64,000 nucleotides of DNA, taken from assembly GCA_008534395.1 (NCBI GenBank), contig SHMQ01000002.1, positions 1,557 to 65,556 on the forward strand, in the 5' to 3' direction. The notes beneath the pieces are model-generated. The model had not been told where the DNA came from. It made no database searches and saw only the letters and a list, made by a program, of their open reading frames with translations. Below are positions 1 through 51,455 of this stretch, in pieces. The stretch comes from Candidatus Acidulodesulfobacterium acidiphilum. GTDB lineage: Bacteria; SZUA-79; Acidulodesulfobacterales; Acidulodesulfobacteraceae. Position 1 is the stretch's first letter, and every line of letters starts with the position of its first letter. A program made the translations under genes and the position numbers.

Positions 1-486
1 CGTTATAAAATCCAAAAATACTTTATAGTTAGGATTACCGACTTTAGCCTCCAGCGATTTATTATATGCAACGCTATCATTTTCACAGTCTATATAACTC
101 CGCCTCGTGCTTAAATCCGGATTTTGGTTGTAAAGACGTTTTCCTAATAAATAGGATATTTCGTCTATTTTAAACAGACTTTTCGTTTTGATATAGCCTG
201 CCCAGCAATATGTAACTTCAGCGGGAGACATATAGTGCAAAAACAGTTTATAATTAGGATTGCCGTTTCCTTCCGCAAGTTTTTTATTGTATTTAAGCAT
301 AAAAATCTTGCATACTTGATAACTCTGCGTGGTAGTTAAATCAGTTTTTTTCTTATAAATAGATTTACCGGCTATATAAGCGGCTTCGTCAAGTTTCTGT
401 AAATTAGAATATACGTCGGCATGAGCAAGCGAAATCATCGAAATAAAAGAAAGAACTAAAACCGTAAAAAAAAATATTTTTTTCAA
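1..486 (-). CDS. partial hypothetical secreted protein (3' end outside window)
   Basis: My own minus-strand translation. TTG at 486 follows a GGGGGG SD-like run. Signal-like N-terminus LKKIFFFTVLVLSFISMISLAHA. Internal repeat GNPNYK(L/V)FL. Frame stays open to the window edge, so it is absent from the ORF track. Confidence 0.45.
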   Translation of the reverse strand, partial: MKKIFFFTVLVLSFISMISLAHADVYSNLQKLDEAAYIAGKSIYKKKTDLTTTQSYQVCKIFMLKYNKKLAEGNGNPNYKLFLHYMSPAEVTYCWAGYIKTKSLFKIDEISYLLGKRLYNQNPDLSTRRSYIDCENDSVAYNKSLEAKVGNPNYKVFLDFIT

Positions 487-498
487 TTTTTGTCCCCC

Positions 499-1245
499 CT
501 AAATATTTATATTTAGCAATAAAGCAGCAATAGCATTAATTTCTTCTACCGAAAATATCTGAGACGTGTTATCGAACATACTTACTGCATTGCTGACAGC
601 ATCGTATCTTGACTTTGCGGGTTTATTCAAAGAACTCGTCATATGAGCATCATCGATGAACCTGTCGGCTATGCCGATAACATAAGCGCTTCTCGAAACT
701 CCCGTCATCTTTTTGTTGTAGCCTTTTGCTAAAGGCAATTCGTGGTGGTCTAAAATAGCCAACGTCGAAACGGGAGATATTGGTAATGCCGAATTAGCCG
801 ATAACTTAGTATGTTGTTTCATCATATCGTATTCGCCTCCAGTTAAATCTCCCTTATATAAAATATATTCGGGTATGCCGATAAGACCGCTATTAGCCAT
901 ATACGAAGCTACCACTAAATCTTCTTTTTCTAATCTGGCTTCTTCATTATTACCGCTTTTAATCAAGTCGAAATCCATTTTTAGAAGCTCAAATATCGAC
1001 ATCGCCACTGCGCCCGTCTTTACGCATTTGTCGAATATTATAGGCTTATTGACCGCTACGTACCCTAAAATCGTGTTTAAAGATTTTATTTTTTCGGATA
1101 CCGGCTGCACCTGATTATTTTCAGGATTTGGATTTTCTTGCGACGGTTCTTGAATATCCGCATTGTCTTGATTAACGGTTTCTTCCGTTTGAACGCCTGC
1201 CGTCTCAGTGGTTTGTTCTTGTAGTTCTTCTTGATTCTCCAGCAT
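499..1245 (-). CDS. hypothetical protein, possibly a degenerate HD-GYP-like domain
   Basis: 248-aa ORF with an acidic Q/E/N-rich N-terminus. DHHELPLAKGYN resembles a degraded HHE..GYP motif. No clear catalytic HD pair. Function is tentative. Confidence 0.4.
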   Translation of the reverse strand: MLENQEELQEQTTETAGVQTEETVNQDNADIQEPSQENPNPENNQVQPVSEKIKSLNTILGYVAVNKPIIFDKCVKTGAVAMSIFELLKMDFDLIKSGNNEEARLEKEDLVVASYMANSGLIGIPEYILYKGDLTGGEYDMMKQHTKLSANSALPISPVSTLAILDHHELPLAKGYNKKMTGVSRSAYVIGIADRFIDDAHMTSSLNKPAKSRYDAVSNAVSMFDNTSQIFSVEEINAIAALLLNINI

Positions 1246-1258
1246 AATATTAATCCTC

Positions 1259-2011
1259 CTATGATTTTTTTGACTTGCAAGTATATTTTATATACCAAGC
1301 TTTACATCCCACGGTAAACAAAGGAATAAATGCGCTTATTCCGTAAACCAAAGCGCTTTTTACCATAAGGTCGAAAAAAGACGGCCTTATTAATTTATAA
1401 AACAACAAAGAGTAATAAACCCTTTTCTGCGGCAAACTTCTGTCTATGAATTTTGCCCAAGAAAAAAAAGTAACGAAATAATGCCCTATCGAGACAAAGC
1501 CGGATAATTTATAAAGCAGATAAAAAACAACTATTGAAAAACCGCCTATAAGCCCTATCATAACCGTTCTTCCCGTTAGAAGGGATAATATAGCTATTTT
1601 GGTTATTCTTCCCGTATAAAGGCTTGCAAGGGTCAGGCAAAGCATTAAATAAGCTATAAGCGGAAGAAGCGCAACCGATATTAAAAGAACCTGCTTAAAT
1701 AACCCTATCGGATGTCCGGTAAAAAAATATACGTAATCAGGTATTATAAAGGCAAGCAGAGGAAATAAGAGTAAAGTAAAAAGCAGTTCAAAAGAACCGT
1801 GTTTCATTCCTACGTTCATATACTCAAGCCTGTCTTTATAAGTAAATCTGTCTGTTTGCAATTTAACGCCCTCTAATTCTATAGCTCTCCATTTTTGCAC
1901 TTGGTCTATAACTTCCATAAATGTTAGAACTTTTTTCTTTTTTTCGGGCATCATAACGCCCGGAGTGCCTGAGCCTTGATTAAACATACCATCGAAATCA
2001 TCATTATTCAT
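1259..2011 (-). CDS. polytopic membrane protein, unknown function
   Basis: ORF track gives 1259..2032. The ATG at 2011 (MNNDDFDG) has a GGGGG SD and overlaps the iscB stop as ATGA. Several long hydrophobic segments. Confidence 0.6.
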   Translation of the reverse strand: MNNDDFDGMFNQGSGTPGVMMPEKKKKVLTFMEVIDQVQKWRAIELEGVKLQTDRFTYKDRLEYMNVGMKHGSFELLFTLLLFPLLAFIIPDYVYFFTGHPIGLFKQVLLISVALLPLIAYLMLCLTLASLYTGRITKIAILSLLTGRTVMIGLIGGFSIVVFYLLYKLSGFVSIGHYFVTFFSWAKFIDRSLPQKRVYYSLLFYKLIRPSFFDLMVKSALVYGISAFIPLFTVGCKAWYIKYTCKSKKS

Positions 2012-3249
2012 AGCTCGGATACCCCCATACAAGGGAGGAGAGCTATCCTCCTTGTTTTAAAAGTTTCAATCAACCTTAATTTTATATATTTAACCGAAGC
2101 GTTGATTTTTTCTCCGGTCAAAAGCCTTAAATCAAAATAGCCTGAACTTCTTAAGCTGTAAATAAAGCACTCTATCTTGCCGTATAATACCTTATCAAAC
2201 CTGTGGAAACCAAAAGCCTGTTTAATGGTATTAACCTTTCTTTTACCGCCTTTAAGCAGGTTAGCCTTAAATAAAGAGCGGTTACACTTGCGGACGTATT
2301 TAATGAAATAGTTATTGTCCGTCCTTTCCTGTCCGCTCCCGCCTGCTATGCAAAAGGCGTCGTTAGCGTGGCTCTTTTCGAGTTTTAACGCTATCCTTGA
2401 GGACTTGGTAAGGTAGCCGTAAGTAATGCTAACGGCGTTGCCTAACTCCCGCAGCTTATTAACTATCTTCCAGCGCAGGATAGACATAATAGTTTCAGCT
2501 TTAAAGGCTTTATGTTTCTTGACTTTAAGCTCTATCTTGCCTTTATGATACGCCTTATGGCAACTTTCGCATAATGTTATAAGGTTATCCGGTCTATCCC
2601 CGCCTGTCTGACGGCTTTCGATGTGGTGAACGTTTAATACCTTATCCTTGCTCTTGCCGTTACAAGCTTGGCATTTATGACCGTCCCTGTAAAGAACGTA
2701 TTCCCTTACGTTCCAAAAGTCCTTTTGATCGCCGTTCTGATAGTCCGTTCCCGTTATATCCGGATTCTTAATTTTCTGGATATCGAAAACAGCGGCTTCG
2801 ACGGTAATCTCCGATACAGGCAATATAGACTTAACAAAATCTACCGCTTTAACATGCTCGTTAAGCCTGTGTTCTACGCTCGGAGCGAGCCAACCGGCTT
2901 TAATACCACGGTTTAAGAAACGAGCCTTGCGATACCATAACCTATTGCGTCTCGTCCTGCGGTATTGCCTTTTCTCCGATAAGAGCTTTTGTATGTCGGT
3001 TCGTAATTCTACTTCGGAGCGAAAAAGCTCTTTATCGCTTGATACCGCCGATAATCCGACGTGCTTATAGCCGGTATCGACGCCTAATTTGACGTCTTGA
3101 ACCTGATTTTCACAATCAAAGTTAAGCTGAATTGTAAAAGGCGTTCTTTTAACCACTTTAGCCCTGCCTTGCTTTAAAAGTTTTCTTGCTTTAGCCGCTT
3201 TGCACGGCATTAACGGTTTACCGTCAATACTTAAAACATAGACTAACAT
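2008..3249 (-). CDS. iscB: IscB RNA-guided nuclease (OMEGA system, Cas9-ancestor family), copy 1
   Basis: 413 aa. PLMP motif (DGKPLMPC). RuvC-I GVDTGYKHVG. Arg-rich bridge RQYRRTRRNRLWYRKARF. RuvC-II ITVEAAVFD. HNH insert CQAC..HHIESRQTGGDRPDNLITLCESCH. RuvC-III SHANDAF. Confidence 0.9.
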   Translation of the reverse strand: MLVYVLSIDGKPLMPCKAAKARKLLKQGRAKVVKRTPFTIQLNFDCENQVQDVKLGVDTGYKHVGLSAVSSDKELFRSEVELRTDIQKLLSEKRQYRRTRRNRLWYRKARFLNRGIKAGWLAPSVEHRLNEHVKAVDFVKSILPVSEITVEAAVFDIQKIKNPDITGTDYQNGDQKDFWNVREYVLYRDGHKCQACNGKSKDKVLNVHHIESRQTGGDRPDNLITLCESCHKAYHKGKIELKVKKHKAFKAETIMSILRWKIVNKLRELGNAVSITYGYLTKSSRIALKLEKSHANDAFCIAGGSGQERTDNNYFIKYVRKCNRSLFKANLLKGGKRKVNTIKQAFGFHRFDKVLYGKIECFIYSLRSSGYFDLRLLTGEKINASVKYIKLRLIETFKTRRIALLPCMGVSEL

Positions 3250-3521
3250 AATCGTTTTTAAAACCTCCTGTTAGTTGAAGTTAGATACGCATCGGGAATG
3301 TTATTCAAGGTTTTTAAGTCTGTCACACTATCCATTACCCTCTCAGGATTGTTTAATAACAGACCACAGTTGCTACGGACTTGCGTTTTACGGGTCAATT
3401 CCCGATATCCGTAGGTGTGTGCCTTATAGGTTCTCTTGAATAACTGCTGATTAAACATAATTTAATCTCCCTTATCAACCGGCTTTTGCAAGCCTGCGGA
3501 TTTATCCGCGGGTGGTTGACT
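3250..3521 (-). ncRNA. omega-RNA-like scaffold upstream of iscB copy 1 (left end of element at about 3521)
   Basis: Locally GC-richer region directly 5' of iscB. Shares nucleotide blocks with the region upstream of iscB copy 2: ACCACAGTTGCTACGGAC, ATCCGTAGGTGTGT, GGATTGTT, TCAACC...GGTTGACT closing stem, and an internal hairpin CCTGCGGATTTATCCGCGGG. The 66-aa ORF here is probably spurious. Confidence 0.7.
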
Positions 3522-3552
3522 GTTTTTTAGTTCCAAAATTGCCTCCAGAAAA

Positions 3553-4092
3553 CTACAAAAATTTTCGTATAAAATATTGATTGTGAGTTAATGCGTATAT
3601 ATCCGCCTTTGGCACAAAATTTAAAACAAGTACAATTAAAACCGCAAGCAACGGCAAAGTAACAAGTCCGTATTCCTGAATAGTCCCAACTCTGAATAAA
3701 TGCAGGCAAAATCCTTTTTTCGTAATAGGATACAAAAACGGAACGCCTTCCATAGTGAGGCTATCGAGGAATAGATGAGAAAGAAAGGCAAGCGTAAAAA
3801 CGGTTATTTCAGGTTTAAGGTTTATATCGTAATGAATATATCTTCCTTTTAAATAAATAATGCCGAAAATACAAACCGCAAGAAATAATAGCGTATGAGC
3901 AATGCCTCTGTGCTTCCATATCGTATTTTTTTTTCTTGAGTCTCCCAGTATTAAATCTATATCCGGCAAAACACCGCCTACCATTCCCGTTAATAAGAGA
4001 GGAACGGTATTTATAGGGGCGTGACTTCCGCTAACGCCGATATAGGCGGCGGTGACGGTTAAACCGGCTATAATATGAGTTATTCTCGTCAT
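3553..4092 (-). CDS. YdjM/DUF457-like membrane-bound metal-dependent hydrolase
   Basis: 179 aa. MTRITHIIAG..., PDIDLILG and HRGIAHTLLF motifs within hydrophobic helices. Confidence 0.65.
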   Translation of the reverse strand: MTRITHIIAGLTVTAAYIGVSGSHAPINTVPLLLTGMVGGVLPDIDLILGDSRKKNTIWKHRGIAHTLLFLAVCIFGIIYLKGRYIHYDINLKPEITVFTLAFLSHLFLDSLTMEGVPFLYPITKKGFCLHLFRVGTIQEYGLVTLPLLAVLIVLVLNFVPKADIYALTHNQYFIRKFL

Positions 4093-4169
4093 GAAAAAAA
4101 TTAAAAAAATAAAAGTTTACGTGAACTACCCGCCCTTACGGACGGGGACTTAAAGTTATAGATTAGTTA

Positions 4170-4207
4170 AAAAATATCACTTTAATAAATGTTTGTCAAT
4201 ACAAAAA
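4170..4207 (-). promoter_or_regulatory. conserved 38-bp promoter cassette, copy 1 (TTGACA, 14 nt, TGaTATTTT on minus strand)
   Basis: Near-identical sequence recurs at 22810..22848 and 23598..23636, each just upstream of a minus-strand gene. Confidence 0.5.
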
Positions 4208-4263
4208 TTAAACAAAAAGATATTATACGGAAAAAATTAGTTAGTGGTATATGCTATATATTG

Positions 4264-6780
4264 TTATATAGTATTATCTTCCTTTAGGAACGAAGACTCG
4301 TATTTTTTATTAGTGTAAATTATTACTTTTTCCTTCGCCCTTGTTAATGCTACATAATAAAGCCTTCTTTCTTCTGCAAAAGGATATTCGTTAACGGTAT
4401 CGGATACGAGATCAAGAATAGAATCGCTTGCGTTTTCGGAAGGAATATTTTTTTTATTCGCATAAATCAAAAAAACAATATCCGCTTCAAGTCCTTTAAC
4501 CCCGTGAATAGTATCGTTCAATACGGTTATATGCTGTTTTTTAAATTCATCTTTAAGCCTGTCGATTTCAAGAGCGTATAGTTCTTTTTTTAAATATGCG
4601 CCGTTTTTTCTGTTAAGAATATATACGGTTTTATTTTTTTCGTCCTTTAAATATTTTTCTATATCGGTAAATATATCCGATTCTTTTTCATAGTTTACTA
4701 TTACGACGGCATCATCTTCGGAATTTGTATTTGCGATTATGCTCTTTTTAATCTGGTTCGGATTTTTCTGAATAAACTCGGAAGAATAATCGACTATTCC
4801 CTTGTCACATCTGAAAGTTTTCGTTAAAAAATTAGTTTTTGTGCCGTAACCGCAGCTTTTGAAATATTTATCGAAGTCATAGATATATTTAATATTGGCT
4901 CCGGCAAAACCGTTAATAGCCTGATAATCGTCGCCAACCGCAAAAAGTTTCGCGTCTTTGTTTTTATTTAAAACTGCTTGAACCATATTAAACTTAGAAT
5001 CCGAAATATCCTGAAATTCATCTATCATGATAAGTTTATAATCTGGGGTAAAATCGCCGGAATTAATGCTTTCTGCGGCCTTTATTACCATATCGGTATA
5101 GTCTATCATGTTTTTGCTTTTAAGTTCGTTTGCGTAGGCGCTATAAACTTCTTCGAACATTTTTAAAAACAAAATATTTCTTTTCCTGCCGTATGAAAAC
5201 TTAATAGATTTGGCTTTTCGTTTTAATTCATCAAGGCTAATTTGCCTGTCCTTAAAATTATCAAGGAAACAGACGAGCAAGTCGTTCAGTTTATTCTCCC
5301 CTATTCTACCTAAATCCCTGTTGATTTCCGATACGGATTTAGGAACAAGTTTTAAACCTCTCTTAATGAGTTCTTTTTTAAGATAGCCAAATAGTTTGCC
5401 TGAAAAAAACATACCGCTCGTGGTTGCAATAAAATCTATTTTGTCTTTTTTGTAAAGTTTTATTTTTCTATCCATATTTTCTATATATTCTTCCCCGAAA
5501 ACCGATTTACCGCAGTTGTCAACGGCAAAATGCTCGTGATATAAATCTGCATCAGGGTAATAGAAATCAGGATTAGCGACAATCTGTTTTTTATTCTTTG
5601 AAAAATAAGGCTTTTCATATTGATAGTTGACGCCGTTTACGTATAGATAGTTTGCTATAACCGCTTCTTGATAAGACTTAACATATTCGCCTTTTATGGT
5701 CCTATAACGGATATCTTTGCCGGTTGCAGCTTTTTTATATCTGTCTCTTTCCAATAAATCATTGTATTCGGCGTAGGGTTCGGCAGTTTCTTTTAAATCA
5801 GATAAATAGCGGGTTACAAATTCAACATAATAACCGAAGAATTTTTTATTGACGGAAGCGTAATTTCTAATAAATCTGTTCGCAAAATTTTCGTCGGCTA
5901 CCGAAACCGTACCGTCTCCTGATTTATTTATAACCAAAAAACCAAAAGAATGAAAAGTATGAATATTTCCCCTTCCTAAATCAATGCCGATTAAACCTGC
6001 TCTTTTAATTAATTCTTCCCTGACTTTTTTATTAAAAGCCAATAGAAGTATCTGTTCTGGTTCATATAAACCTTTTTTCAGAATATAATTTAATTTATAA
6101 AGCATAGTTTCGGTTTTACCGGAACCTGCCGCTGCAATTAAAAGGTTTCTGTCTTCAAACGTTATAATTGCGTTTTTCTGCTCCTCGGTAAGCTCATTGC
6201 CTTTTGCGCTAAAGAAAAGGTTTTTATATTTATTTTTTTCCGATTTTATATATTCGGCGTTTCTTTTTTCTATTTCTTCCGTAAATCTAAATTCTGCTAT
6301 GTTTTTTATTTTTTGGGATAAATCGGCGTCGTCAAGCAATTTATACATAGAAGATTTTACAAGATAGGAACAGTAGTTTACTAAAGCGCCGTATTTTTCT
6401 TTAAGTAAAGATATATCGGAATATGCGACATATTTGTCCTGAGACATTAAATCTTTGTAATCGGAACGCAAGATTTCTATTCCTAAATCGTTTAACTTTA
6501 AAAGACAAAGAGATTTGAGTTTAGGGGATAATGAATGCAAAAAATTATCTATAGTTATATTCAGAACAAAAGACAGTTTAATGCTGGGGCGATTATTCAA
6601 AATAACGACTATTGTAGAAAAAATAAAAGAGCTGCCGTATTTTATATCGTAAATATCGTCGTATTTAATAGATGTTTTATTTTTGCCGTTTTTAAAAATA
6701 AATAAAGCAGGCGGGTCGTCTATTAAACTTAAAGATTTTCTTTCAAATATGTTTAATAAAGCAAACGGTTTTATCTGCAT
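4264..6780 (-). CDS. UvrD/Rep superfamily-1 helicase, helicase IV (HelD)-like
   Basis: 838 aa. Walker A AAAGSGKTET. IMIDEFQDIS. YVALTRAKEKV. Inserted module IANYLYVNGVNYQYE...PDFYYP...HEHFAVD. About 200-aa N-terminal extension of unknown function. Confidence 0.8.
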   Translation of the reverse strand: MQIKPFALLNIFERKSLSLIDDPPALFIFKNGKNKTSIKYDDIYDIKYGSSFIFSTIVVILNNRPSIKLSFVLNITIDNFLHSLSPKLKSLCLLKLNDLGIEILRSDYKDLMSQDKYVAYSDISLLKEKYGALVNYCSYLVKSSMYKLLDDADLSQKIKNIAEFRFTEEIEKRNAEYIKSEKNKYKNLFFSAKGNELTEEQKNAIITFEDRNLLIAAAGSGKTETMLYKLNYILKKGLYEPEQILLLAFNKKVREELIKRAGLIGIDLGRGNIHTFHSFGFLVINKSGDGTVSVADENFANRFIRNYASVNKKFFGYYVEFVTRYLSDLKETAEPYAEYNDLLERDRYKKAATGKDIRYRTIKGEYVKSYQEAVIANYLYVNGVNYQYEKPYFSKNKKQIVANPDFYYPDADLYHEHFAVDNCGKSVFGEEYIENMDRKIKLYKKDKIDFIATTSGMFFSGKLFGYLKKELIKRGLKLVPKSVSEINRDLGRIGENKLNDLLVCFLDNFKDRQISLDELKRKAKSIKFSYGRKRNILFLKMFEEVYSAYANELKSKNMIDYTDMVIKAAESINSGDFTPDYKLIMIDEFQDISDSKFNMVQAVLNKNKDAKLFAVGDDYQAINGFAGANIKYIYDFDKYFKSCGYGTKTNFLTKTFRCDKGIVDYSSEFIQKNPNQIKKSIIANTNSEDDAVVIVNYEKESDIFTDIEKYLKDEKNKTVYILNRKNGAYLKKELYALEIDRLKDEFKKQHITVLNDTIHGVKGLEADIVFLIYANKKNIPSENASDSILDLVSDTVNEYPFAEERRLYYVALTRAKEKVIIYTNKKYESSFLKEDNTI

Positions 6781-6822
6781 TTTTGCTGTGTCCGCAATGC
6801 GGAAATTAGTTTGAAAAAAAAA

Positions 6823-7188
6823 TTAATCTTTATCGTATTTATTAGCTTCTTTTGAAATATCCGAAACGATTTTTGCTATATGCTGTTTTTCCGTCATCTC
6901 AAAGTCCACGCCTAATATAGTTCCTAAAACTAAAGCTAAGATTAAAACTCCGCCGGCGGCGAAAAACATATCGCCTAAAAGTGGAATAAACCACTTAAAT
7001 ATAATTCCTAAAACAGTAAAAACAACGGCAAATATCGTATAATACGCCTTTTTGCTTAATTCAGGCTTATCGCCTGTTTTATGCGATGAATAAGTTTTGT
7101 TTGCCGCATTTTTGCTTCTTTTGTAAAGATAAACAAGCAAAACGACAATGCCGATAATAATTAATTCAGGATAACCGATTCCATACAT
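6823..7188 (-). CDS. small membrane protein
   Basis: 121 aa with three hydrophobic helices. Confidence 0.5.
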   Translation of the reverse strand: MYGIGYPELIIIGIVVLLVYLYKRSKNAANKTYSSHKTGDKPELSKKAYYTIFAVVFTVLGIIFKWFIPLLGDMFFAAGGVLILALVLGTILGVDFEMTEKQHIAKIVSDISKEANKYDKD

Positions 7189-7249
7189 AATTAGCCCCCT
7201 TTAAAAAAATGTTATTTTAATAAATTATATCATAAAAATATGAAATAGA

Positions 7250-10200
7250 TTAATGTTGACCTGGCGCCGTTAATCCAAAAGGATGAACCATTTGTCCTTT
7301 CGCAATATTAAATCCGGTATTAATACTATTATTGAAACTATTAAGATTAATATCACCATAACTCGTTAAGTTAAGTCCTTCGTTAAACGCTCCTGGGTTA
7401 GATAAATTTTTTCCGCCTTGTTTAAATTGATTATATAAATAACCAGCGCCCGACTGAGAAAAAACACCTACGGTTGAAACAGCGACTCCGTCAACTATTC
7501 CTAATCCCTGATCAACTCCTGTATTAATAAAATCTTTTTTGCCCCCGTTAAAACCTGGCGCAAACGGATCATTGTTTTGTAAAAACTGCATTGCCGCCGG
7601 ATTTGCTTCTTTATTAACCCAATGACTCGTAGCCCCCGTCGGTTCGCCTACTGAGCCTATACTTGGCAACGGAAGATTATAAGCATTACTCGCCGCATTA
7701 TTTAAATTAACATAATTGCCGCCGTTATTGTTAAAATTGCCGTTAATTACGCCTTGAGCATGTTTTACCTGACCAGATATATTTGTAGGAACCGAAGATG
7801 TCGCCGAATGAAGAACTTTTCCTCCTGCATTGATGCCAGCATTAACTCCAGGAATCATTGCGCTTTTATCTCCAAAATTTGCCATTTGCTGCAATACTGG
7901 AGCCATAGTCGATAAATGTTTAGAATCGGTAACAAAATTTGAAAACTGTCCGACAAAATTGGAGAGACCGCCTTTACCCGTATGTGTGGCGTTTAAAAAT
8001 GCCGGCGTTACGCCTCCCGTAACCCCCATCGTTCCAGTTTGCACTTCTCCAAGTTCCTGCTTTAAATCCTTAATTTTAGACTCCGTTTGTTCTAATCTAT
8101 TAACTTGGCTTAACTCATGTCTTGCATCGTTACTAATACCAGCAATATGTTTGCTTGCTATAGTCGCTAAATCTTGATGCAGCGTGCCTGTATTCCGAGC
8201 AACGCCGGAAGCCGTTGCCGTCGTATGAGCCGAATTAACGGAATGGCTGCTTCCAGTAGTTACAGCACCTCCTATGCCATCTATTTCTAATCCTACAGTA
8301 CCATTTTTTCCAGTAGTAGTATTATGCGCCGTCGTCGTATTTTGTCCGTTCTTCGTTGAATTAAAAACCTTAACGGTTTGAATATGTCCTGAAGTAGAGG
8401 TATTGCCTTGCGAAGCTTCATATTTATTATATCTGTTTATAATGCTGTCGGAAGCTTTAGTAACAGACTGAGATCTGCTGTTCAATTCTCTTTCTTCATG
8501 CGTTAAGTTGGTTTTAATATCTGTTTCTAATGCTTTTCTCTCGTTAGCGCTCATATTGCTAGAAACGTTTGTAAAGCCCCATCCGTCAGAACCTTTTTCC
8601 AATGTAGCAGTAGCACCACTTCCCGCCTGGACGGACGCATATTCATGTCCTCCGTTTTCATAGGTATTTACTTTCATACCGTCGATTATCTGCTCTCCTG
8701 TATTTGCGCCGTGCTCGTTTGTAAAATTTCTTGCCCTATATCCCGTATTTTGAACGTTCGTGACATTCGTCCCATTAGCAAGATAGATATTATCTTTAAT
8801 CTGCCCCGCCGTCATATTGCCTAATCCTGCTTCTGCTCCTTTAACCGAAGCGTTTTTAGATATGGCGCTGTCCATTCCGCCGACTACGCTTGCGACGGCG
8901 TAACTGGAACCTGAGGCTATCATATAGGCAACCATTGGAACCGACCATGAGAAATAACCCATCCAAGACAAGGATGTAGCAAGGAAAGAATTTACCGTTC
9001 CACTTCCGGAAACGGAATAGCCTAAACCTGCAATAGGTTGATACTGCGCTTGAATTATAAGCTGCGTTATATAATTAAATATTGCGGTCAAAGACGGCCA
9101 AATCGTAATCATAATCATAAGCTGAAATAAGAGCTTAAGGTATGACACGCCCATATGCGTTAAAATAAGAATAAAAATAATAACGGAAGCGCCGAGTAAA
9201 ATCGCTTCGAATATGCCGAAAACTATCGGCATATATTTGCCCGCAAGTATGCCGGACTCCATCATGCCCGTTTTAGTAGATGTTACCCCCGTTCCGGTTG
9301 CTACGGCCAAAGAAGAAGCGTTTGAATCGGACGCCTGAGCCATTTTTAAAATTGCGGGAGCATACATATTGACGCCTATCGCCTGCATAAGCTGAGCCTG
9401 ACCGCCCTGCTGCATATTAAATATATAAGGATTAACCGCGCCTATGGCATTTGACAGGTCGGAAAAGGAAGCCATTTGTAAACCGCCCGCTATAGCCGGA
9501 CCTGCGTTATTTGTTATATAATCCTGAACGGCAGTTTGAAGCCAAGTAGTTTCCTGAGAACAAGTGGTTGTCGTTCCGCCGGGATCGCTTTGACCCGAAG
9601 CCGTTTCGGTAACGGAAGTTGGGGAACTACCTGAATACCATTCCGTAAGCAGATTGCCGCCCCCGCCGGTTGCGGTATTAGACGTGTAAGTGCTCATAAC
9701 CGTCCAAATGCTGTTTGCGGCGTTAGAGTTATAAGTTTGGGACGCGGTATCGGTTGCGTCTCCGGCTCCCAAAAGTTCGGAAACGTCTAAATATCCGGCG
9801 GATATTCCCGGCGCTACGCAGTTTGAAATATACTGGTTATAATCCTGATAAAGATAGGAATTAGACGTCGAAATAGTGGCGCTGTCCGCCTGCTGAATTA
9901 TGGAAACGCCTAAACCTTCGGACAGCATATTATCTCCGGCAGGAACTGAAAAATCATTAGTAAAATCTTTGGCAAGCCCGTATTGAATAGTCGTAAAATC
10001 CGACCATAAAACCGCTATTCCCCAAGGAACGTTACTTATAGGTTGGGCGTTTGTAGGAGCCGCGGGATTTGAAACATCGTTAATAATTACGGTAGTCTGA
10101 TTATAAACGAGCCCCGTTAGTATTATACTGAAAACTATAACGTATTTAGCCGTAGAAAGTAGCGAATGCTGATGATAGATAGTAACCCTGATAGCATAAT

Positions 10201-22781: not shown

Positions 22782-22809
22782 AAAGCCTCCTTTAAATTTA
22801 AATTAATTA

Positions 22810-22848
22810 AAAAATATCATTTTAATAAATCTATGTCAATACATAAAT
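22810..22848 (-). promoter_or_regulatory. conserved 38-bp promoter cassette, copy 2
   Basis: AAAAATATCATTTTAATAAATCTATGTCAATACA. Same cassette as at 4170 and 23598. Confidence 0.5.
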
Positions 22849-22859
22849 TAATAAAAAAG

Positions 22860-23570
22860 TTATTTTGCTTCAAAACGCAATATTTTCTGCACTACGGCGT
22901 TAAGCAAACCGCTTGTAAGCTGTCCCGTCCAATGAAAAACTATTTTATGGTGCATTATAAAAAACGATTGAGGAACTTCGTTTATTCCGCCGTAGTCTTG
23001 CAATTCCAAAATATTTGCGTGGACTATAGGATAAGTTAAGCCGTCGTCAAACTGTTCGACGAAGTTTTTGACTCCGTTTTTAAGGACGTTTACGTTTATG
23101 CCTATTATCAATACGTTCTTTTTATTTCTTTTATAAAATCTATTAAGCATAGGCAATTCCGCCCGGCAAGGCGGACACCAAGTAGCCCAAAAATTTAATA
23201 TAATTACTTTTTTATGGATTTTGTTTAAATCGATATATTTATATCCGGAAAGTTTAGGGTTAAACACGTTGCCTCTTATATTTGGAGCCTTTGGCGTATA
23301 AGCGTAGGATTTTTGAGATAAAGCAAAAAAGGCGAGAAATAAAACAATTAACGAAAGAGCAGTCTTAAAATAACTTCTTTGTATAGTATTTTTTTTACGG
23401 ACCAAATAAAAATTTTTATAATGTTGATATATATAATGTTCTTTCGTTAAGGAATCTACAATATCCGATAAAACCTCTTTAGAAAATTTTGACTTCGACT
23501 GTAATGCCGTAAAAGTAATACCCGGATTTTCCGATATAATCTTGCAAACTAATTTTTGATAACTATCCAC
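22860..23570 (-). CDS. TlpA/ResA-like thioredoxin with N-terminal winged-helix-like segment and a TM helix
   Basis: 236 aa. FWATWCPPCRAELP redox motif. The N-terminal 60 aa look like a wHTH (ENPGITFTALQSKSKFSKEVLSDIVDSL). Confidence 0.7.
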   Translation of the reverse strand: MDSYQKLVCKIISENPGITFTALQSKSKFSKEVLSDIVDSLTKEHYIYQHYKNFYLVRKKNTIQRSYFKTALSLIVLFLAFFALSQKSYAYTPKAPNIRGNVFNPKLSGYKYIDLNKIHKKVIILNFWATWCPPCRAELPMLNRFYKRNKKNVLIIGINVNVLKNGVKNFVEQFDDGLTYPIVHANILELQDYGGINEVPQSFFIMHHKIVFHWTGQLTSGLLNAVVQKILRFEAK

Positions 23571-23597
23571 GTGAGCCTCCTTTTATTAAGGTTATAA

Positions 23598-23636
23598 AAA
23601 AAATATCATTTTAATAAATGTTTGTCAATACAAAAA
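23598..23636 (-). promoter_or_regulatory. conserved 38-bp promoter cassette, copy 3
   Basis: AAAAAATATCATTTTAATAAATGTTTGTCAATACAAAAA. Confidence 0.5.
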
Positions 23637-23647
23637 AATAATATAAA

Positions 23648-24334
23648 TTAAATAACATTAGAAATTTGTCCAAATCCAAGTCCCATTTTATATCCTAAAA
23701 ATTCAGGCAAGCGATAATTTGATATAAAAGATAAATACATAACAGGCAAAATTTTGTCTTTATATTTAATATTTTTAAAAACGAATTGATTATTTTGATT
23801 TTGAAAATAAATTTCTATTTTATCTAACAAATCAAATGGCAATTCGCTATTTAAATATTCTTTTGCTTGAAAAATAACGCTGTCTATTATTCTGCGCTTA
23901 AGATATTTTATAAAATCGGTTTTATCGCTTTTTTGGGAAACGTTAAACAATATCTTATATTCGGTATTATTAACTCCCAGAACGAATGGCGTTCTGCTCT
24001 TATAAAATACCATTTCCTTTTTATCTGCAAACGATAGGTAATTGTCGTAACTTACATCTACCTTATTGATTTTTTCGCCGTAACAAACAAAATTTCCTGA
24101 ATTTAATTTATTGGCTAAATCGCCTATAACATCTATAGACTCTTTATCTGATTTTGCAAATGTGATTTCAAAAATATTTCGATAAGGTTTAGAATAAATA
24201 ACAGGCGATAGACCCTTACCATGATACATAACAAAATCTTTATCTTTTTCATCTGCGATAGAACCAATAAAATTTCTGATATCTCTTGAATCAAAACCGG
24301 ATAAATTATTTGATAACGTAACTTTAATTTTCAT
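23648..24334 (-). CDS. cas6: Cas6-family (Csf5-like) crRNA endoribonuclease
   Basis: 228 aa. C-terminal glycine-rich loop GYKMGLGFGQ. Starts 22 nt after the last CRISPR repeat and has an AGGAGG SD. Confidence 0.65.
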   Translation of the reverse strand: MKIKVTLSNNLSGFDSRDIRNFIGSIADEKDKDFVMYHGKGLSPVIYSKPYRNIFEITFAKSDKESIDVIGDLANKLNSGNFVCYGEKINKVDVSYDNYLSFADKKEMVFYKSRTPFVLGVNNTEYKILFNVSQKSDKTDFIKYLKRRIIDSVIFQAKEYLNSELPFDLLDKIEIYFQNQNNQFVFKNIKYKDKILPVMYLSFISNYRLPEFLGYKMGLGFGQISNVI

Positions 24335-24356
24335 AAAACCTCCTAAAATTAATTTT

Positions 24357-25247
24357 ATTTTAACCTCACATATGTTAAACTCATACTACGATACAAAATG
24401 GTATTCTAATCCAACCTATTACTTTTAACCCCACATATGTTAAACTTATACGCGCAAGGCACGCAGGGAACGCAGCTTGTAAATTCCCTCTTTTAACCTC
24501 ACATATATTAAACTCATACCTATTTAAATAATCCCTTATAGAACGTCTGATAGACTTTTAACCTCACATATATTAAACTCATACAGAGATGCATCCTTGT
24601 CTCATATAGTTGATGGAGAATTCTTTTAACCTCACATATGTTAAACTCATACGAGAATTTTCGTCTCAAATTATTCCTGAAGAACCCGACTTTTAACCTC
24701 ACATATATTAAACTCATACTCTCGAAAATCGACACGCTCTTTTAGTCGGTGTCAGCTTTTAACCCCACATATGTTAAACTTATACCGGTTCTTCTAATGT
24801 ATGAAACCGGCGCCCGTATCGCTTTTAACCCCACATATATTAAACTCATACTCCGCCCAAACCGATGCCGAAAAATTTTTTATGACCTTTTAACCTCACA
24901 TATATTAAACTCATACACAAGTCATCTTATAAATTGTAATTTCAGCTAATCCCTTTTAACCCCACATATGTTAAACTCATACGTTACAAGGACGATATTA
25001 AATTTCCGGCGATAACTACTTTTAACCTCACATATGTTAAACTTATAGTAAACGCTATCCGTTTCCATTATCAAGCCCTTACAAACCTTTTAACCCCACA
25101 TATGTTAAACTTATACCAAGATTTTTTATCGACTTTACTTTGAATATCTTAACTTTTAACCCCACATATGTTAAACTTATACTTGTAGTACCTGTAGCAA
25201 GTTCGGCGTTCGACATTCTTTTAACCCCACATATGTTAAACTTATAC
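24357..25247 (-). CRISPR. CRISPR array: 14 repeats of 30 nt, 13 spacers of 35-38 nt
   Basis: Plus-strand repeat is CTTTTAACC[T/C]CACATAT[G/A]TTAAACT[C/T]ATAC. Repeat starts: 24357, 24422, 24490, 24555, 24623, 24690, 24756, 24822, 24887, 24953, 25019, 25087, 25153, 25218. Strand inferred from three things: co-orientation with the cas genes, identical repeats at the 25.2-kb end, and the GT...AAAAG form of the minus-strand repeat. Confidence 0.95.
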
Positions 25248-25352
25248 CCAAATTTTACCAAATGAAATCAAATAACTGCCGACCAAATCATCTTTTTTCG
25301 TCTGTCGCACTTGAGTAATGCAAAAATATCAGAAGAGCGACAGACAATCAAA

Positions 25353-26411
25353 TTATTCCTGAGCATCATCATCGGCAGATGTTTTAAAATATTTTTCTAT
25401 ATTTATGTTTTCTGCGGATATATTATCAAGCCATTTGTCCGCCTCCGTAATAGCCTTCCGTTGTTCGCTTGTATATTGCGGTTTCACGTTTACGTTAAAC
25501 GTATATTCATCGTCAGACCGGGACTGAAGAAAAGGATTGCCGTAATCTCCGTCTATGAACATATCGTAATTGATTACTCCCCAGCTTTTTTGGGTAGAAC
25601 CTACCCTCGCCGCAGCAAAAATCTCAAGCGTTTTTAGAAGTAAACCATATTCATATTCTTCAATTAGGTATCTGTCAGGCAATTGCATAATCGAGCTATG
25701 CAAAGTTATGCCCGGGACGATGTACTCTTTGCTTATCAACATTTGTATGGAAGTCTTGTCATCTTCTTTATCTACTTTTATCTGTTCCTGATAGGCTTGT
25801 AATTCCTCTAATGTAAATACTTTCGTTGCAGTTACGGAAACATTTCTTAAATCGTCCATATGCGCTATGTTCATTTCTTGTATATACGACGGTTTTTTAA
25901 TATCAAAATTTATCGTCCTATGATCAACTTGTTTTTCAATTATATCAGTAGTAGGTATAAAGTTATTAATGGCTATTTTGCCAGAAATGATAAGTCCTGT
26001 TCCAAATACAGATATTACGGGATTCAACTTTCTTATTTCATTTAAATCTTTTGCATTTCTTTTCGTTTGCTTTTTATCTTTATTCTTATCGGCGTCGACG
26101 TCGTTGTCACTCTCGCTTTTATTGTCTTTATTTTTTTTCTTGTTTTTTTTCTGGTTTACGCCGCCTCCATTAGACATCAAAGAAAAATCGGCGGGCGTAA
26201 GCTTTATGCCCTTGGATAGGGCTTTCTCCAACAAAAGCTCAGTCATAATCCTGCGCAATTTTCCGTTTACTCCGTTTGCAGGCAGATAACCTACCTCGTA
26301 AAGAGTGTTCCCAATACACACAACTAATTTTTTGATGTAAATGTTGCCTTTGTCGGCACTATCGATAATGCCTACCGGTGTTTTAGTGACTGCCCTAATG
26401 TCAATTCTCAT
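25353..26411 (-). CDS. csf2: Csf2 (type IV Cas7-like RAMP) with a lysine/aspartate-rich insertion
   Basis: 352 aa. LPANGVNGKLRR and NPVISVFGTG RAMP-like motifs. Lies between dinG and the array. Confidence 0.65.
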   Translation of the reverse strand: MRIDIRAVTKTPVGIIDSADKGNIYIKKLVVCIGNTLYEVGYLPANGVNGKLRRIMTELLLEKALSKGIKLTPADFSLMSNGGGVNQKKNKKKNKDNKSESDNDVDADKNKDKKQTKRNAKDLNEIRKLNPVISVFGTGLIISGKIAINNFIPTTDIIEKQVDHRTINFDIKKPSYIQEMNIAHMDDLRNVSVTATKVFTLEELQAYQEQIKVDKEDDKTSIQMLISKEYIVPGITLHSSIMQLPDRYLIEEYEYGLLLKTLEIFAAARVGSTQKSWGVINYDMFIDGDYGNPFLQSRSDDEYTFNVNVKPQYTSEQRKAITEADKWLDNISAENINIEKYFKTSADDDAQE

Positions 26412-26442
26412 AATTTGATACCTCCATAAATTAAATTTAAAA

Positions 26443-28215
26443 TTAGATTAATTTGCCTATGTTTTTAAAAATTCTATTTAATCTGGCTTTGATTCTTTCG
26501 TCGTTTATTCTTGCGTCAAGTATGTATATATCGCCTTTATCGTCAGGTCTTCTCTGAAGCCTTCCGAGACTTTGGCGGGTTATAAACAGCATGTCGTTAT
26601 AAACGGTATTCCAGTAATATCCGTCATTGAAAGCTTTCTTGTCTTGCATGTCTTTGTCGTTGATCGGGGGAAATAAAAGTTTTGTTATATATAACTTTTC
26701 AAGTTCGTCTCCGGGCAAATCGATGCCCGTTGCATAAGTTCTCGTTCCTATCAATATTCCGCCCTCAAGTTTAAATTTATTAATAGTTTGGGCTTGCGTC
26801 ATCGTATAGTCAGCTTTAATGATGTTTGTATTTGGCAAAAGTTTTATTAATGCAGAATGTAGCGCCTTAACTTCCGCATAACTTCCGGCTATTACCAACG
26901 AATTTTTGTTTTCAAACGTTTTATTTATGTAACTGGCTATGCCGTCAACCCATTCCGCATCCGGCGTCCCGTCGTCAGACATATTTTTATTTTTCTTTAC
27001 AAGATAATCAGTGTGTATCTTGATATTATCCGTAGGAAATAGTCTTGGTTCGCTTTTAATTATTACTTTATCTTTTAGTCCGCTAAGACCAAGTTTTTTA
27101 ATTATATAATCGCCGTTATCCATTTCTATGCTTTGAGAAAATTCTTTTTTATCGGCAGGCGGCGGGACAGTAAAAAGAGTTCCCGATACGCCGACAAATC
27201 CAGATAAACTTTTAAAAAAATTATATAAACCCGATTGAACGCTTTGCGACTGAAAATGGACAGTCGGATAACCCTTAGCAGGCGAATAATACAAAGAAAT
27301 ATTTTCTTCGCTATTAACTATGGTGTTAAGTTCTGTATACTCCTGTAAAAAAATCTTTGCGTATCTGTCGGTTTTTAGTTCTTTAATTAATTTCGTTAAT
27401 TTTTTTCGAGACGACGCAAATTTAGTTAAATCGTCCAGATAATCTTTAAATAAGCGCTTGTCCGTTACATACGAGTCGATTTTATTTTCGTCCTTATATT
27501 TTTTAAGTAATACAGACGATTCTTTATAGATTTTACCGAGATATGTTTTTGCCGTTCTGTCAATTTTGCTTTTTCCTATTATTCTTTTTAGCGAAGTTGT
27601 AAATCGTGAAACAGAAAAACTCGAAGTAGAAATTAATTTCTGAGCTTCGTACATTTTATCCACTTCGTCGGACAATATGTAATATTCCGATAAATCGACG
27701 TTTTTATTGTATCTAAGCATTATAAGAAAAACATGATTGGTGATTGATACATCATATTCAGATACGCTGTCCAAATCTTGCCTGTTGTCTGCATGATAGA
27801 TATTTGATACTACTAATTTGTCGTCGTCGTTTAAAAGGCAATTCCTGTACAACTCTTCAAACGTTATATTTTTATTTAAAGTTTTAGCGTATTCAATTAC
27901 TTTATCCGGATACGTAAAATAAGAATAAAACTCGTCGTCTATTTTGTTTAAATCTAAATAATTTTCCGCTCCGATTACTATGCCTACTTTCAAATTAGGG
28001 AATCTTTCCTTGAAATCTAAAAATAGCTTGTCGGCTAAAGAATTGGTAAAAGTAGATATTATAACCTTCCTGTCTTTAAGAAGCTCCACTGCGATATGAG
28101 GCAATAAATAACTTGATTTGCCGAATCCGGTTGATAATTCATGCAAATGAATAAATTTTCTCCTTGCATTTTCTACTGCTATTTTTAAAATTTCCGTCTG
28201 CTTTTTGCTTAACAT
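26443..28215 (-). CDS. dinG: Csf4/DinG-family (XPD-like) helicase
   Basis: 590 aa. STGFGKSS Walker A, SDEVDKMY (DEAH-type box), ATGIDLPG, LGRLQRRPDDKGDIYILD (motif VI). Confidence 0.85.
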   Translation of the reverse strand: MLSKKQTEILKIAVENARRKFIHLHELSTGFGKSSYLLPHIAVELLKDRKVIISTFTNSLADKLFLDFKERFPNLKVGIVIGAENYLDLNKIDDEFYSYFTYPDKVIEYAKTLNKNITFEELYRNCLLNDDDKLVVSNIYHADNRQDLDSVSEYDVSITNHVFLIMLRYNKNVDLSEYYILSDEVDKMYEAQKLISTSSFSVSRFTTSLKRIIGKSKIDRTAKTYLGKIYKESSVLLKKYKDENKIDSYVTDKRLFKDYLDDLTKFASSRKKLTKLIKELKTDRYAKIFLQEYTELNTIVNSEENISLYYSPAKGYPTVHFQSQSVQSGLYNFFKSLSGFVGVSGTLFTVPPPADKKEFSQSIEMDNGDYIIKKLGLSGLKDKVIIKSEPRLFPTDNIKIHTDYLVKKNKNMSDDGTPDAEWVDGIASYINKTFENKNSLVIAGSYAEVKALHSALIKLLPNTNIIKADYTMTQAQTINKFKLEGGILIGTRTYATGIDLPGDELEKLYITKLLFPPINDKDMQDKKAFNDGYYWNTVYNDMLFITRQSLGRLQRRPDDKGDIYILDARINDERIKARLNRIFKNIGKLI

Positions 28216-28225
28216 TTCATCCCCC

Positions 28226-29668
28226 TTAATTGAATGGATAAATAATTTTTAGTAAATTAAGAATATCGTGCGTGTATTTAGCCTTAAAACCGATATATTT
28301 GTTTTTGGAATATAAATAATCCGTTTTGTCTTCAGAATTATCCAGTTCCTCTACCGCTTTTAGAAACATTTCGGTATCTATCGTCATAACGCCGTATTGC
28401 TTGTTTGCTATTTGAAACATTGCATTACTGACATTGACGCTTGACTTGAAAACAAGATGTGCGCCGTTGGAATCATTTTTTATAGTTATAAGAAACGGCG
28501 GCGTTTTATCTTTAATATTTTTGTAAAATTGAAGTTTTGTTTCCCTAATTTTATTTTTGATTAAGTTGTCGAATTTTTCTTTTGTCATACCTGCCGGACG
28601 CTGAGTATTTTCTTTCACCGCTTTATCTAAATTTCCGCCGCCTATATAGATTTTTTCATTGTTAGAAATAAACAAATTTGCCGTTTTATTATAATTTTCG
28701 CTGTGTTCGATTGCCTTGCAATAATCGCAGACATAATCTCCCGCTTCTACGAATCCAAAATCCGTAAAAGTCTTCGGAAATATTTTTTCTTTTTCTTTTG
28801 TATCTCTTTTAATTCCGTCACTCCCGCCGCACATTATACAAATATGTTTTTTTTCAGATGTTTCAGGAACAAACGGCTTTTTTTCGTACGTGAAAGAAAA
28901 CATATCCTTTGTGTTTTTGTACATAAATTCCGTTGAACTCATAAAATCCATTGTGGTAATACTTTTAAATCCTTTATCCCAAGAAACGTCTTTTTCTTCC
29001 GTGTAATACATAGGCGGCATATAACAAGCAACCTTATTTTCTTTTAGCCAATAAGGCGGATAAAATCTATAAAACATAACTCTATGGGTATTTACCGAAA
29101 ATTTAGAACATGGAAGAGGTTTAGAAACAGTAGTTGCATTTAATAAAATACCTTTGTTTTCATCGATTACTTCTACTTCAGGATCATCGTCCGCAAATCC
29201 AAAACCTATTTTTGCTTTTTTTCCAAGATATTTAACTTCTTTTAATAAATCCAATATTTTGTCTTTATGTCCCGTTACATAAAAATAAATTTTCGGCAAA
29301 ACCAATATTGGAAAAATTAAATTATAGGCCTTATACTGACCTTTATCGGTAATAAATTTTTTATCGGTAAAAAACCCATGCTTTTTATATTCTTCGTGTT
29401 TCATAGACTTAAACATCCTGTATTCACTTTTGTAGATAGGGCTATCTTTGTCTGCGTACCATATAGAACCTGATATAATTCCGTTTTTTATTTCGAGAAA
29501 CTTGCCTATCTCGTCCAAAAAATCTTCCGTTTTAATAAAATCCGTAATATTCTTTTCCTCTTTGTATTTTTTAAAAAAGACAGAAAGCAAAATAGAATCT
29601 ATCGTCGTAAATCTATTTTGAAATATTGCAGGACTTTCAAGATTAAAAGTTATTTTTAAATTTTCCAC
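28226..29668 (-). CDS. candidate Cas5(Csf3)-Csf1(Cas8-like) fusion protein
   Basis: 480 aa with a GTG start after an AAGGAGAA SD. N-terminus MENLKITFNLESPAIF...IDSILLS plus YLGKKAKIGFGF loop are RAMP/Cas5-like. Central CIMCGG...CDYC zinc ribbon as in Csf1. Confidence 0.55.
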   Translation of the reverse strand: MENLKITFNLESPAIFQNRFTTIDSILLSVFFKKYKEEKNITDFIKTEDFLDEIGKFLEIKNGIISGSIWYADKDSPIYKSEYRMFKSMKHEEYKKHGFFTDKKFITDKGQYKAYNLIFPILVLPKIYFYVTGHKDKILDLLKEVKYLGKKAKIGFGFADDDPEVEVIDENKGILLNATTVSKPLPCSKFSVNTHRVMFYRFYPPYWLKENKVACYMPPMYYTEEKDVSWDKGFKSITTMDFMSSTEFMYKNTKDMFSFTYEKKPFVPETSEKKHICIMCGGSDGIKRDTKEKEKIFPKTFTDFGFVEAGDYVCDYCKAIEHSENYNKTANLFISNNEKIYIGGGNLDKAVKENTQRPAGMTKEKFDNLIKNKIRETKLQFYKNIKDKTPPFLITIKNDSNGAHLVFKSSVNVSNAMFQIANKQYGVMTIDTEMFLKAVEELDNSEDKTDYLYSKNKYIGFKAKYTHDILNLLKIIYPFN

Positions 29669-33216: not shown

Positions 33217-33297
33217 TTTTATCTAAAACCAGCAAGAAGACCCCGTCTTTACAAGGCGAGGATAAATTGCAATCCCTTGCCGTATTTAATTAAAATT
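33217..33297 (-). mobile_element. solo right-end relic of an IscB element
   Basis: About 80 nt nearly identical to 58056..58135, which is the last ~16 codons of iscB copy 2 plus 32 nt downstream, including hairpin CCCGCC-TTGTAAA-GACGGGG. Confidence 0.7.
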
Positions 33298-33298
33298 A

Positions 33299-44440: not shown

Positions 44441-44470
44441 GCTATATTTTATATTAATAAATAGAATTTT

Positions 44471-44559
44471 TGTCAATACAAAATTTAATAAAAACGTCAT
44501 TTTAAATCAAAAATATATAAATTCTGTATTGACAAAAATTAACGAAATATGATTATAAT
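44471..44559. promoter_or_regulatory. divergent promoter pair built on inverted GTATTGACAAAA boxes
   Basis: Minus strand: TTGACA (44476-44471), 17 nt, TATAAA, 7 nt, ATG. Plus strand: TTGACA (44529-44534), about 19 nt, TATAAT (44554-44559). Confidence 0.55.
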
Positions 44560-51387: not shown

Positions 51388-51455
51388 TTTGAGACTCCTC
51401 CTGCTGTCCTCGAATTTTTTGTTTTTTCTAAATTCTAAGCGTGCCTTTATCGCTT

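Follow-up and report, generated by a model that had tools for sequence, protein, structure and literature searches.

Cas9 descends from the IscB nucleases with their omega-RNAs, which also serve as compact genome editors; their guides are 16 nt long, and the target-adjacent motif (TAM) of OgeuIscB has been reported as NWRRNA. GstIscB of Geobacillus stearothermophilus is carried by ISGst5, a non-autonomous IS200/IS605-type element (Meers et al., 10.1101/2023.03.14.532601). In iscB elements the side that bears the omega-RNA (the HEARO family of Rfam) forms the right end, and the TAM adjoins the left end, on the 3′ side of iscB; the TAM of GstIscB is TTCAT and differs from the transposon-encoded motif (TEM) at positions 3 and 5, and about 98.5% of iscB loci are non-autonomous (Meers et al., 10.1101/2023.03.14.532601). 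Here we analyse an IscB element in a 64,000-nt stretch of DNA, hereafter the window, from Candidatus Acidulodesulfobacterium acidiphilum (assembly GCA_008534395.1, contig SHMQ01000002.1, positions 1,557 to 65,556). The window very probably holds an ordinary, intact IscB/omega-RNA element inserted in the first codons of a conjugative-plasmid membrane gene, whose translation now appears to restart at an ATG overlapping the iscB stop codon.

In organisation and TAM, the window element is closest to GstIscB/ISGst5. It is likewise a non-autonomous IS200/IS605-type element, has TTCAT adjoining its left end and, as GstIscB elements do, lies in the orientation of the upstream gene; the catalytic numbering is near-identical (D58 and H209/H210 in GstIscB, D58 and H208/H209 in the window). 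Unlike GstIscB, it resides on an AT-rich (34.5% GC) conjugative element of uncultured bacteria. It also differs in that its insertion point falls within the first codons of a gene, where a stop and a start codon overlap, and in having a truncated left-end hairpin. With OgeuIscB and the other solved IscBs (7utn, 7xht, 8csz, 11hr) it has in common the PLMP/RRXRR, split RuvC and HNH architecture, whereas its length (413 aa versus about 495 aa in OgeuIscB-type proteins) and its inferred TTCAT-type TAM set it apart from them and from the NWRRNA of OgeuIscB, respectively. Compared with the HEARO family (RF02033), the window RNA is likewise full-length, above the gathering threshold and directly upstream of an HNH-containing open reading frame (ORF) on the same strand; it differs by a 25-nt insertion in one hairpin loop and is otherwise nothing unusual.

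Table 1. Features of the IscB locus and of the remaining window (positions are those of the window).
Feature	Position	Strand	Evidence
iscB, intact, 413 aa	2008..3249	(-)	ORF translation, Pfam, NCBIfam, PDB alignment, pN/pS
Omega-RNA scaffold (HEARO)	3280..3520	(-)	Rfam RF02033 covariance model
Omega-RNA guide position, reads TTGGAACTAAAAAACA	3521..3536	(-)	16 nt directly 5′ of HEARO model position 1
Right end (TnpA convention): TEM, TTGAC; boundary after 3520	3516..3520	(+)	Divergence of three copies
Left end (TnpA convention), the iscB 3′ end: conserved terminus AGCTCGGATA, subterminal hairpins	2012..2055	(+)	Six insertions compared
TAM position, TTCAT (ATGAA on the iscB strand)	2007..2011	(+)	Adjoins conserved terminus AGCTCGG (2012 onward)
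Membrane gene, 250 aa from ATG, native N-terminus MELKN replaced	1259..2011	(-)	Homologue comparison
Orphaned Shine-Dalgarno sequence GGAGG of the membrane gene, parted from the gene body by the element	3542..3546	(-)	Empty-site comparison
ydjM-family membrane hydrolase gene, upstream neighbour, co-oriented with iscB	3553..4092	(-)	Pfam YdjM 9.8e-26
Promoter-like site TTGACA-17-TATTTT with TG, upstream of ydjM	4171..4199	(-)	Consensus scan; putative function
77-nt repeat family, four copies in the window	4159..4235, 22799..22875, 23588..23664, 44436..44512	TTGACA on (-)	
Second IscB element (copy 2); omega-RNA 59314..59547, iscB about 58088..59284	58062..59547	(-)	HEARO match, repeat comparison
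Solo iscB 3′-end fragment, copy-2 type: last 13 codons, hairpin, then ATAAA	33223..33301	(-)	Repeat comparison
TnpB, 427 aa (HTH_OrfB_IS605, OrfB_IS605, Cas12f1-like TNB), without adjacent TnpA	54197..55480	(-)	
Type IV-like CRISPR-Cas locus; array 24354..25256	23648..29668		

An earlier reading of this DNA by a model, made from the letters and a list of ORFs (the sequence-only reading), had listed the PLMP domain, a split RuvC with its acidic residues and an HNH insert as IscB hallmarks, and Pfam, NCBIfam and PDB alignment agree that all are present. Residues 3-173 match RRXRR (PF14239; 4.7e-63), with GKPLMP, the PLMP motif, at residues 10-15, and residues 193-236 match HNH (PF01844; 2.7e-09). 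The protein scores 369.8 bits against the NCBIfam guided_IscB equivalog NF040563, for which the cut-off is 175. Residues 2-332 align with solved IscB structures (PDB 11hr and 7xht/7utn/8csz; E 1e-41 to 5e-40), such that D58 of GVDTG, the E of TVEAAVF and the H and D of SHANDAF pair with their PDB 11hr counterparts, and H208/H209 of NVHHIE align to the HYHHV motif of solved IscB. We take GVDTG, TVEAAVF, NVHHIE and SHANDAF to hold the IscB catalytic residues, and those of both RuvC and HNH are intact. The dead mutant of GstIscB is D58A/H209A/H210A (Meers et al., 10.1101/2023.03.14.532601). The C-terminal ~80 aa do not align to the solved structures and are taken to be the TAM-interaction region. 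Between the window and a second iscB allele at the same site (contig L006), 11% of bases differ, with 85 synonymous and 53 nonsynonymous changes; the resulting ratio of nonsynonymous to synonymous divergence (pN/pS), 0.164, indicates purifying selection on iscB.

Homologues of the IscB C-terminus of ~161 aa were considered as a separate family and rejected, as they start at an internal iscB methionine on truncated contigs or in broken copies. Two decayed IscB relatives were also seen: L018 (2233..3491) is frameshifted and interrupted by an in-frame stop within the HNH region but keeps a full HEARO, and P0023 (183 aa) has an internal deletion that fuses the PLMP domain to the C-terminal domain.

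Upstream of iscB, where an omega-RNA-like region had been suspected, the covariance-model search returned a match to the full RF02033 model (positions 1-211) at 113.8 bits (gathering 83; E 1e-22). The match ends 30 nt ahead of the iscB ATG (3249) on the same strand, and the scaffold probably continues to about 3250. In a joint alignment of this element (copy 1), copy 2 and L018, whose own HEARO match reaches 111.6 bits, 18 of the 63 predicted omega-RNA pairs stay paired through double-sided changes, which with three sequences amounts to modest covariation support. The TCAACC...GGTTGA stem that had been proposed to close the RNA is real, although it forms the first stem of the 5′ domain instead of closing the whole molecule. 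A publicly annotated 66-aa ORF (3258..3458, minus strand; contigs L002-L005) is almost certainly spurious: it lies wholly inside the omega-RNA, in a frame different from that of iscB.

The guide was correctly expected just outside the scaffold, and its position shifts from the predicted 3522..3537 or so to that given in Table 1. It corresponds to the original TTG start of the membrane gene, codons 2-5 and one further base, and it differs from the relatives' empty sites by 1-2 mismatches. No second guide target was found within the window, where the next-best match carries 3 mismatches and is at chance level.

Comparison with relatives lacking the element defines the insertion. Five public contigs encode the identical IscB protein, and L006 encodes a 413-aa variant; these six occupied contigs have the element in one shared place, flanked by ydjM and the 250-aa membrane gene where the contig reaches. 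Membrane-gene relatives without IscB (L007-L015; 78-87% amino acid identity) provide empty sites at which about 15-22 nt separate the ydjM stop from a Shine-Dalgarno (SD) sequence with a TTG start and a 252-aa ORF beginning MALSNNDYDGM, MELNNNDFDGM or MELKNNDLDGM; ydjM is a neighbour common to occupied and empty relatives. At the empty sites of L007, L008, L009, L010 and L016, the order is GGAGG, GGGAG or GGGGG, then 4-5 nt, then a TTG or ATG start. Just outside the omega-RNA, the window reads GGAGGCAATT TTG GAA CTA AAA AAC A, followed by GTCAACC of the element. Because this flank keeps the relatives' SD, TTG start and MELKN codons, the element split the membrane gene after about codon 5. In the comparison with L007-L015 the element is not flanked by direct repeats, which corresponds to insertion without target-site duplication. 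The comparison places the omega-RNA-side end where the sequence-only reading had expected it, to within 1 nt.

At the right end, copy 1, copy 2 and L018 diverge directly outside GTCAAC, so that the element finishes as ...GGTTGAC at 3520. The common end GACT at 3521 proposed earlier is one base too long, L018 having another base at 3521. As in Geobacillus elements, positions 3 and 5 distinguish the TEM, TTGAC, from the TAM, TTCAT. The DNA hairpins of the right end have a folding energy of -13.7 kcal/mol (z -4.5). The left end was defined from five further independent insertions with the same iscB 3′ end (L017, L018, L019, L020 and L021). All six have ...(C)CGAGCT in common, continue with ATGAA (window), ATGAT, ATAAA, ATGAG, ATATT or ATGAA, and are unrelated beyond. 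Read on the other strand, the pentamers adjoining the terminus are TTCAT, ATCAT (L017), TTTAT, CTCAT, AATAT and TTCAT, the window pentamer being identical to the experimentally determined TAM of GstIscB. In IS200/IS605 elements, the pentamer at the TAM position is normally derived from the target.

This pentamer holds both the TGA of iscB (2010..2008) and the ATG of the membrane ORF (2011..2009). With ATATT as its pentamer, L020 has an iscB ORF that reads on to a TAA six bases later; iscB of this clade has no stop codon of its own inside the conserved terminus. An element ending exactly after the TGA, with a non-conserved TAM, was considered and rejected in view of the conservation of the pentamer in six insertions. 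The subterminal structure of the left end is reduced. The CCC-TTGTAT-GGG hairpin noticed in the sequence-only reading exists (2024..2035) and is a shortened form of the stronger hairpin of relatives: the inner left-end hairpin of the window (2022..2037) is ~9 nt shorter than theirs and has a weak fold (z -1.4), against inner hairpins of 8 bp in the DNA folds of relatives (e.g. L021, z -3.3). The C-terminal peptide of IscB reads ALLPCMGVSEL in the window, versus ALLPPALTDGVSEL or ALLPFINTEVSEL in relatives.

The stop and start codons overlap as ATGA on the minus strand, as had been seen by eye, and public gene calls use that ATG. The further suggestion that the element end supplies or overlaps the translation start of the membrane gene is supported by the empty sites, which show a native SD and TTG cut off by the insertion; the refinement is that the 5-nt TAM position, directly beyond the conserved terminus, contains both codons. 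The native start is now 1.5 kb away, and the ATG at 2011 is the first in-frame ATG, with an in-frame TTG 7 codons upstream (2032). Homologues of the membrane protein are 248-253 aa long, with N-termini such as MELNNNDFDGM or MALSNNDYDGM; a look-up of the 250-aa protein itself by exact sequence gave no record. Among occupied plasmids, the membrane gene shows 23 synonymous versus 6 nonsynonymous differences (window and L001) and 20 versus 5 (window and L006), giving a pN/pS of about 0.07. In the occupied contig L003, a 48-bp deletion flush with the right end (window equivalent 3521..3568) takes out the ydjM stop, the old SD, the TTG and the guide, such that the guide becomes ydjM codons; the membrane ORF downstream of iscB is nonetheless open over 220 nt, to the contig end. 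With its SD and TTG lost, the membrane gene most likely relies on termination-reinitiation at the AUGA overlap for its translation; its low pN/pS and the L003 ORF, open after loss of the old start signals, fit this mode.

The piece deleted in L003 ends, on the TnpA strand, in TTCGT, one mismatch from the TAM TTCAT; the deletion may reflect aberrant TnpA-type cleavage and rejoining.

The distribution of the element among plasmids bears on its mobility. The window and L001 share an exact run of 1583 bp (3529..1947) that spans the whole element, the next longest exact run in the 12-kb comparison being 195 bp. The flanks are 92.0% (ydjM), 96.1% (membrane gene) and 81.6% (TraG_N region) identical, and the helicase genes are unequal in length (838 versus 931 aa). 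Because the element is 100% identical while its flanks are far more diverged, it was shared recently between diverged backbones at one site, together with short co-converted flanks. No Y1_Tnp domain (HUH TnpA) was found among the 35 window ORFs scanned against Pfam, and tblastn of the window with an approximate IS200 TnpA query gave nothing better than E 0.076; with no TnpA found in the window, the element is non-autonomous. This absence and the truncation of the iscB-side hairpin make present-day spread by recombination or homing more likely than TnpA transposition.

That the identical element in diverged backbones results from ordinary recombination or mosaicism of co-resident plasmids, without IscB-guided homing, comes close to an even chance. 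The identity tract overruns the element on both sides, like any conversion tract, by 9 bp on the left (~59 bp if one mismatch, at 3530, is allowed) and 65 bp on the right; the backbones are mosaic in their helicase lengths and in the TraG_N region, and L006 shows the reversed pattern, with flanks closer than iscB. However, the sole long identity tract in the 12-kb comparison centres on the element, and homing itself goes through recombination, so that the two readings differ only in the initiating event.

It is improbable that the element is an immobilised relic, kept since the membrane gene needs it for translation and encoding an IscB that no longer acts on DNA. The weak fold of the truncated left-end hairpin, the lack of a TnpA in the window and the conservation of the same insertion in 6/6 occupied contigs would fit such a relic, but purifying selection on iscB, the full set of catalytic residues and an omega-RNA that scores as a full-length HEARO speak against it. 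In another reading, the element may have lost TnpA-type mobility altogether, with RNA-guided homing into a single fixed site as its sole means of persisting and spreading among diverged conjugative plasmids, while the TAM-encoded AUGA couples translation of the membrane gene to that of iscB. The truncated hairpin and the absence of a transposase nearby would mark that loss, and a 100%-identical element with short co-converted flanks in an 82-96% identical backbone fits this scenario, which we regard as doubtful; if true, the AUGA coupling would make plasmid fitness depend on keeping the element.

In the mechanism that we favour, the segment 2012..3520 of the minus strand is a 1.5-kb non-autonomous IS200/IS605-type element, with HEARO and intact iscB, inserted in operon orientation after about codon 5 of the membrane gene. 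Read-through from the ydjM promoter would yield the omega-RNA, with the former start region of the membrane gene as its 5′ guide. This guide would be exactly the sequence of the unoccupied site, so that IscB-omega-RNA could cut empty copies beside a TTCAT-type TAM and the element could be copied in by recombination (homing), a step derived from work on Geobacillus (Meers et al., 10.1101/2023.03.14.532601). The iscB ORF ends at the TGA within the TAM-position pentamer ATGAA, and the membrane gene would restart by termination-reinitiation at the AUGA overlap.

Several points weigh against this interpretation. Guide use, cleavage, homing and reinitiation are all steps that we infer. The guide is perfectly matched in 0 of the empty sites found (1-2 mismatches each), and even the closest of these reach only about 87% protein identity. 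With a truncated left-end hairpin and no TnpA, mobility by transposition is at most putative, and the identical-element pattern, which is what RNA-guided homing predicts, could also be given by plain recombination. Finally, the canonical boundaries (2012 and 3520) rejoin the flanks as TTG GAA CTA AAA AAC AAT GAA TAA, which is out of frame. This reconstruction calls either for a junction that departs from the canonical one by 1, 4, 7 or 10 nt, or for a later change.

TAM-like pentamers overlap across 10 nt at the left junction, whose exact place is ambiguous within that span, and four solutions restore the frame. The first extends the right end by one base (3521), which yields the N-terminus MELKNMNNDDFDGM with three extra codons and an ATG derived from the target as part of the TAM. 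In the other three the ATG travelled with the element, and the flank starts again at 2007 with two extra codons, at 2004 with one or at 2001 with none, the last giving MELKNNDFDGM with one synonymous change and a TAM-like ATCAT, as in L017. This last solution is the most parsimonious for the host gene, and it implies that the element took along 10 nt (ATGAATAATG, an old TAM and some flank). Experiments have demonstrated the capture of extra flanking DNA at the right end, and the same has been proposed for both ends (Meers et al., 10.1101/2023.03.14.532601). On balance, an ATG that came with the element is the likelier origin, and one derived from the target the less likely.

A specific form of the latter, in which the target already held the ATG (TTCAT encoding an internal methionine), the overlap is simply the TAM and the element, spanning 2012..3521, adds nothing, is rather unlikely. 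TTCAT does directly adjoin the conserved terminus, as a canonical TAM would; a 1-nt shift on the omega-RNA side gives the in-frame TTG GAA CTA AAA AAC ATG AAT AAT GAT GAT TTC; and copy 2 has an A at the position equivalent to 3521. However, L018 has G, not A, outside GTCAAC, and the three extra codons required (MNN) are found in 0/18 homologues, while the reconstruction without indels (MELKNNDFDGM, flank from 2001) is closer to relatives and also offers a TAM-like pentamer, ATCAT, as L017 does.

The element sits in an operon of ydjM, the membrane gene and an HD gene, with ydjM, iscB and the membrane gene co-oriented. iscB elements are biased to the orientation of the upstream gene (Meers et al., 10.1101/2023.03.14.532601). 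The promoter-like site upstream of ydjM is the likely source of a transcript that would run into the guide and omega-RNA. This site falls within the 77-nt repeat copy at 4159..4235, which thus lies upstream of ydjM, the other three copies being apparently upstream of minus-strand genes as judged by coordinates only, and the family is probably a shared plasmid promoter or operator. The ydjM-membrane gene junction is a repeated landing zone, since in L016 a TnpB (IS605 OrfB) element (1729..2984) occupies the last ydjM codons, ~35 nt upstream of the IscB site; the L016 TnpB is 39% identical to the TnpB of the window. Samples ERZ27237159, ERZ27237189 and ERZ27237279 contain variants of the site that are occupied by IscB, empty or occupied by TnpB.

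The wider window encodes F-type conjugation genes (TraG_N, TraH, TraC/P-loop TraG and TrbI) together with a primase, an SNF2 helicase, a type I restriction-modification methylase-specificity fusion, an SSB gene and TnpB, and on the strength of these genes it is a conjugative plasmid or integrative and conjugative element of an uncultured bacterium. Related contigs come from metagenome-assembled genomes. Megablast of positions 1..8000 against PLSDB plasmids and GenBank phages matched nothing, and neither two metagenome-contig scans (with the membrane protein and a conserved 29-mer) nor two viral-contig scans (with the 29-mer and the left-end hairpin) gave a match.

Copy 2 has a HEARO match of 123 bits on the minus strand and a putative TAM, TTTAT, at 58057..58061 (+), its iscB-side boundary being set by analogy and by comparison with the solo fragment only. 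Its iscB has CCG CGG GTA where copy 1 has the ATG, and the only in-frame ATGs lie six codons in (MRGKPLMP...) or 61 codons upstream (59470, inside the omega-RNA; a 460-aa ORF), such that copy 2 may be N-terminally altered or poorly translated. At the DNA level the two copies are 74-82% identical over the first ~310 codons and about 43% identical over the last ~100 codons plus element end (2008..2316 versus 58088..58348). This pattern looks like a mosaic or swap of the C-terminal part, taken as the TAM-interaction domain, and the left end.

What the sequence-only reading had counted as a third copy is merely an 85-nt fragment of an iscB 3′ end without omega-RNA (33217..33301, 91% identical to 58056..58140), in the intergenic gap upstream of a replisome-organiser-like gene; the Rfam scan found no HEARO match near it. 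The CRISPR-Cas locus has weak, below-cut-off matches to Csf2, Csf3/Csf1 and a Csf4/DinG helicase and, in a further ORF, an equally weak, below-cut-off match to Cas6b_C; its array holds about 14 repeats of 30 nt with spacers of 35-38 nt, none of which match the fetched loci of relatives. A 55-nt direct repeat (51402..51456 and 52636..52690) is 98% identical over its two copies, 1234 bp apart.

The locus illustrates published principles and represents no new kind of system, and it leaves the understanding of IscB unchanged; it adds one compact (413-aa) IscB with an inferred TTCAT-type TAM. Particular to it are the insertion in the first codons of a conserved gene of the conjugation operon, a guide taken from that gene's start, the overlap at the TAM position, the truncated hairpin and an identical element in diverged backbones. 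The presence of the identical element at one site of diverged plasmids is the pattern expected for homing. The locus thereby illustrates how placement in an operon can let a guide be read from flanking DNA, and how a TAM can give the nuclease its stop codon and the interrupted host gene its restart codon.

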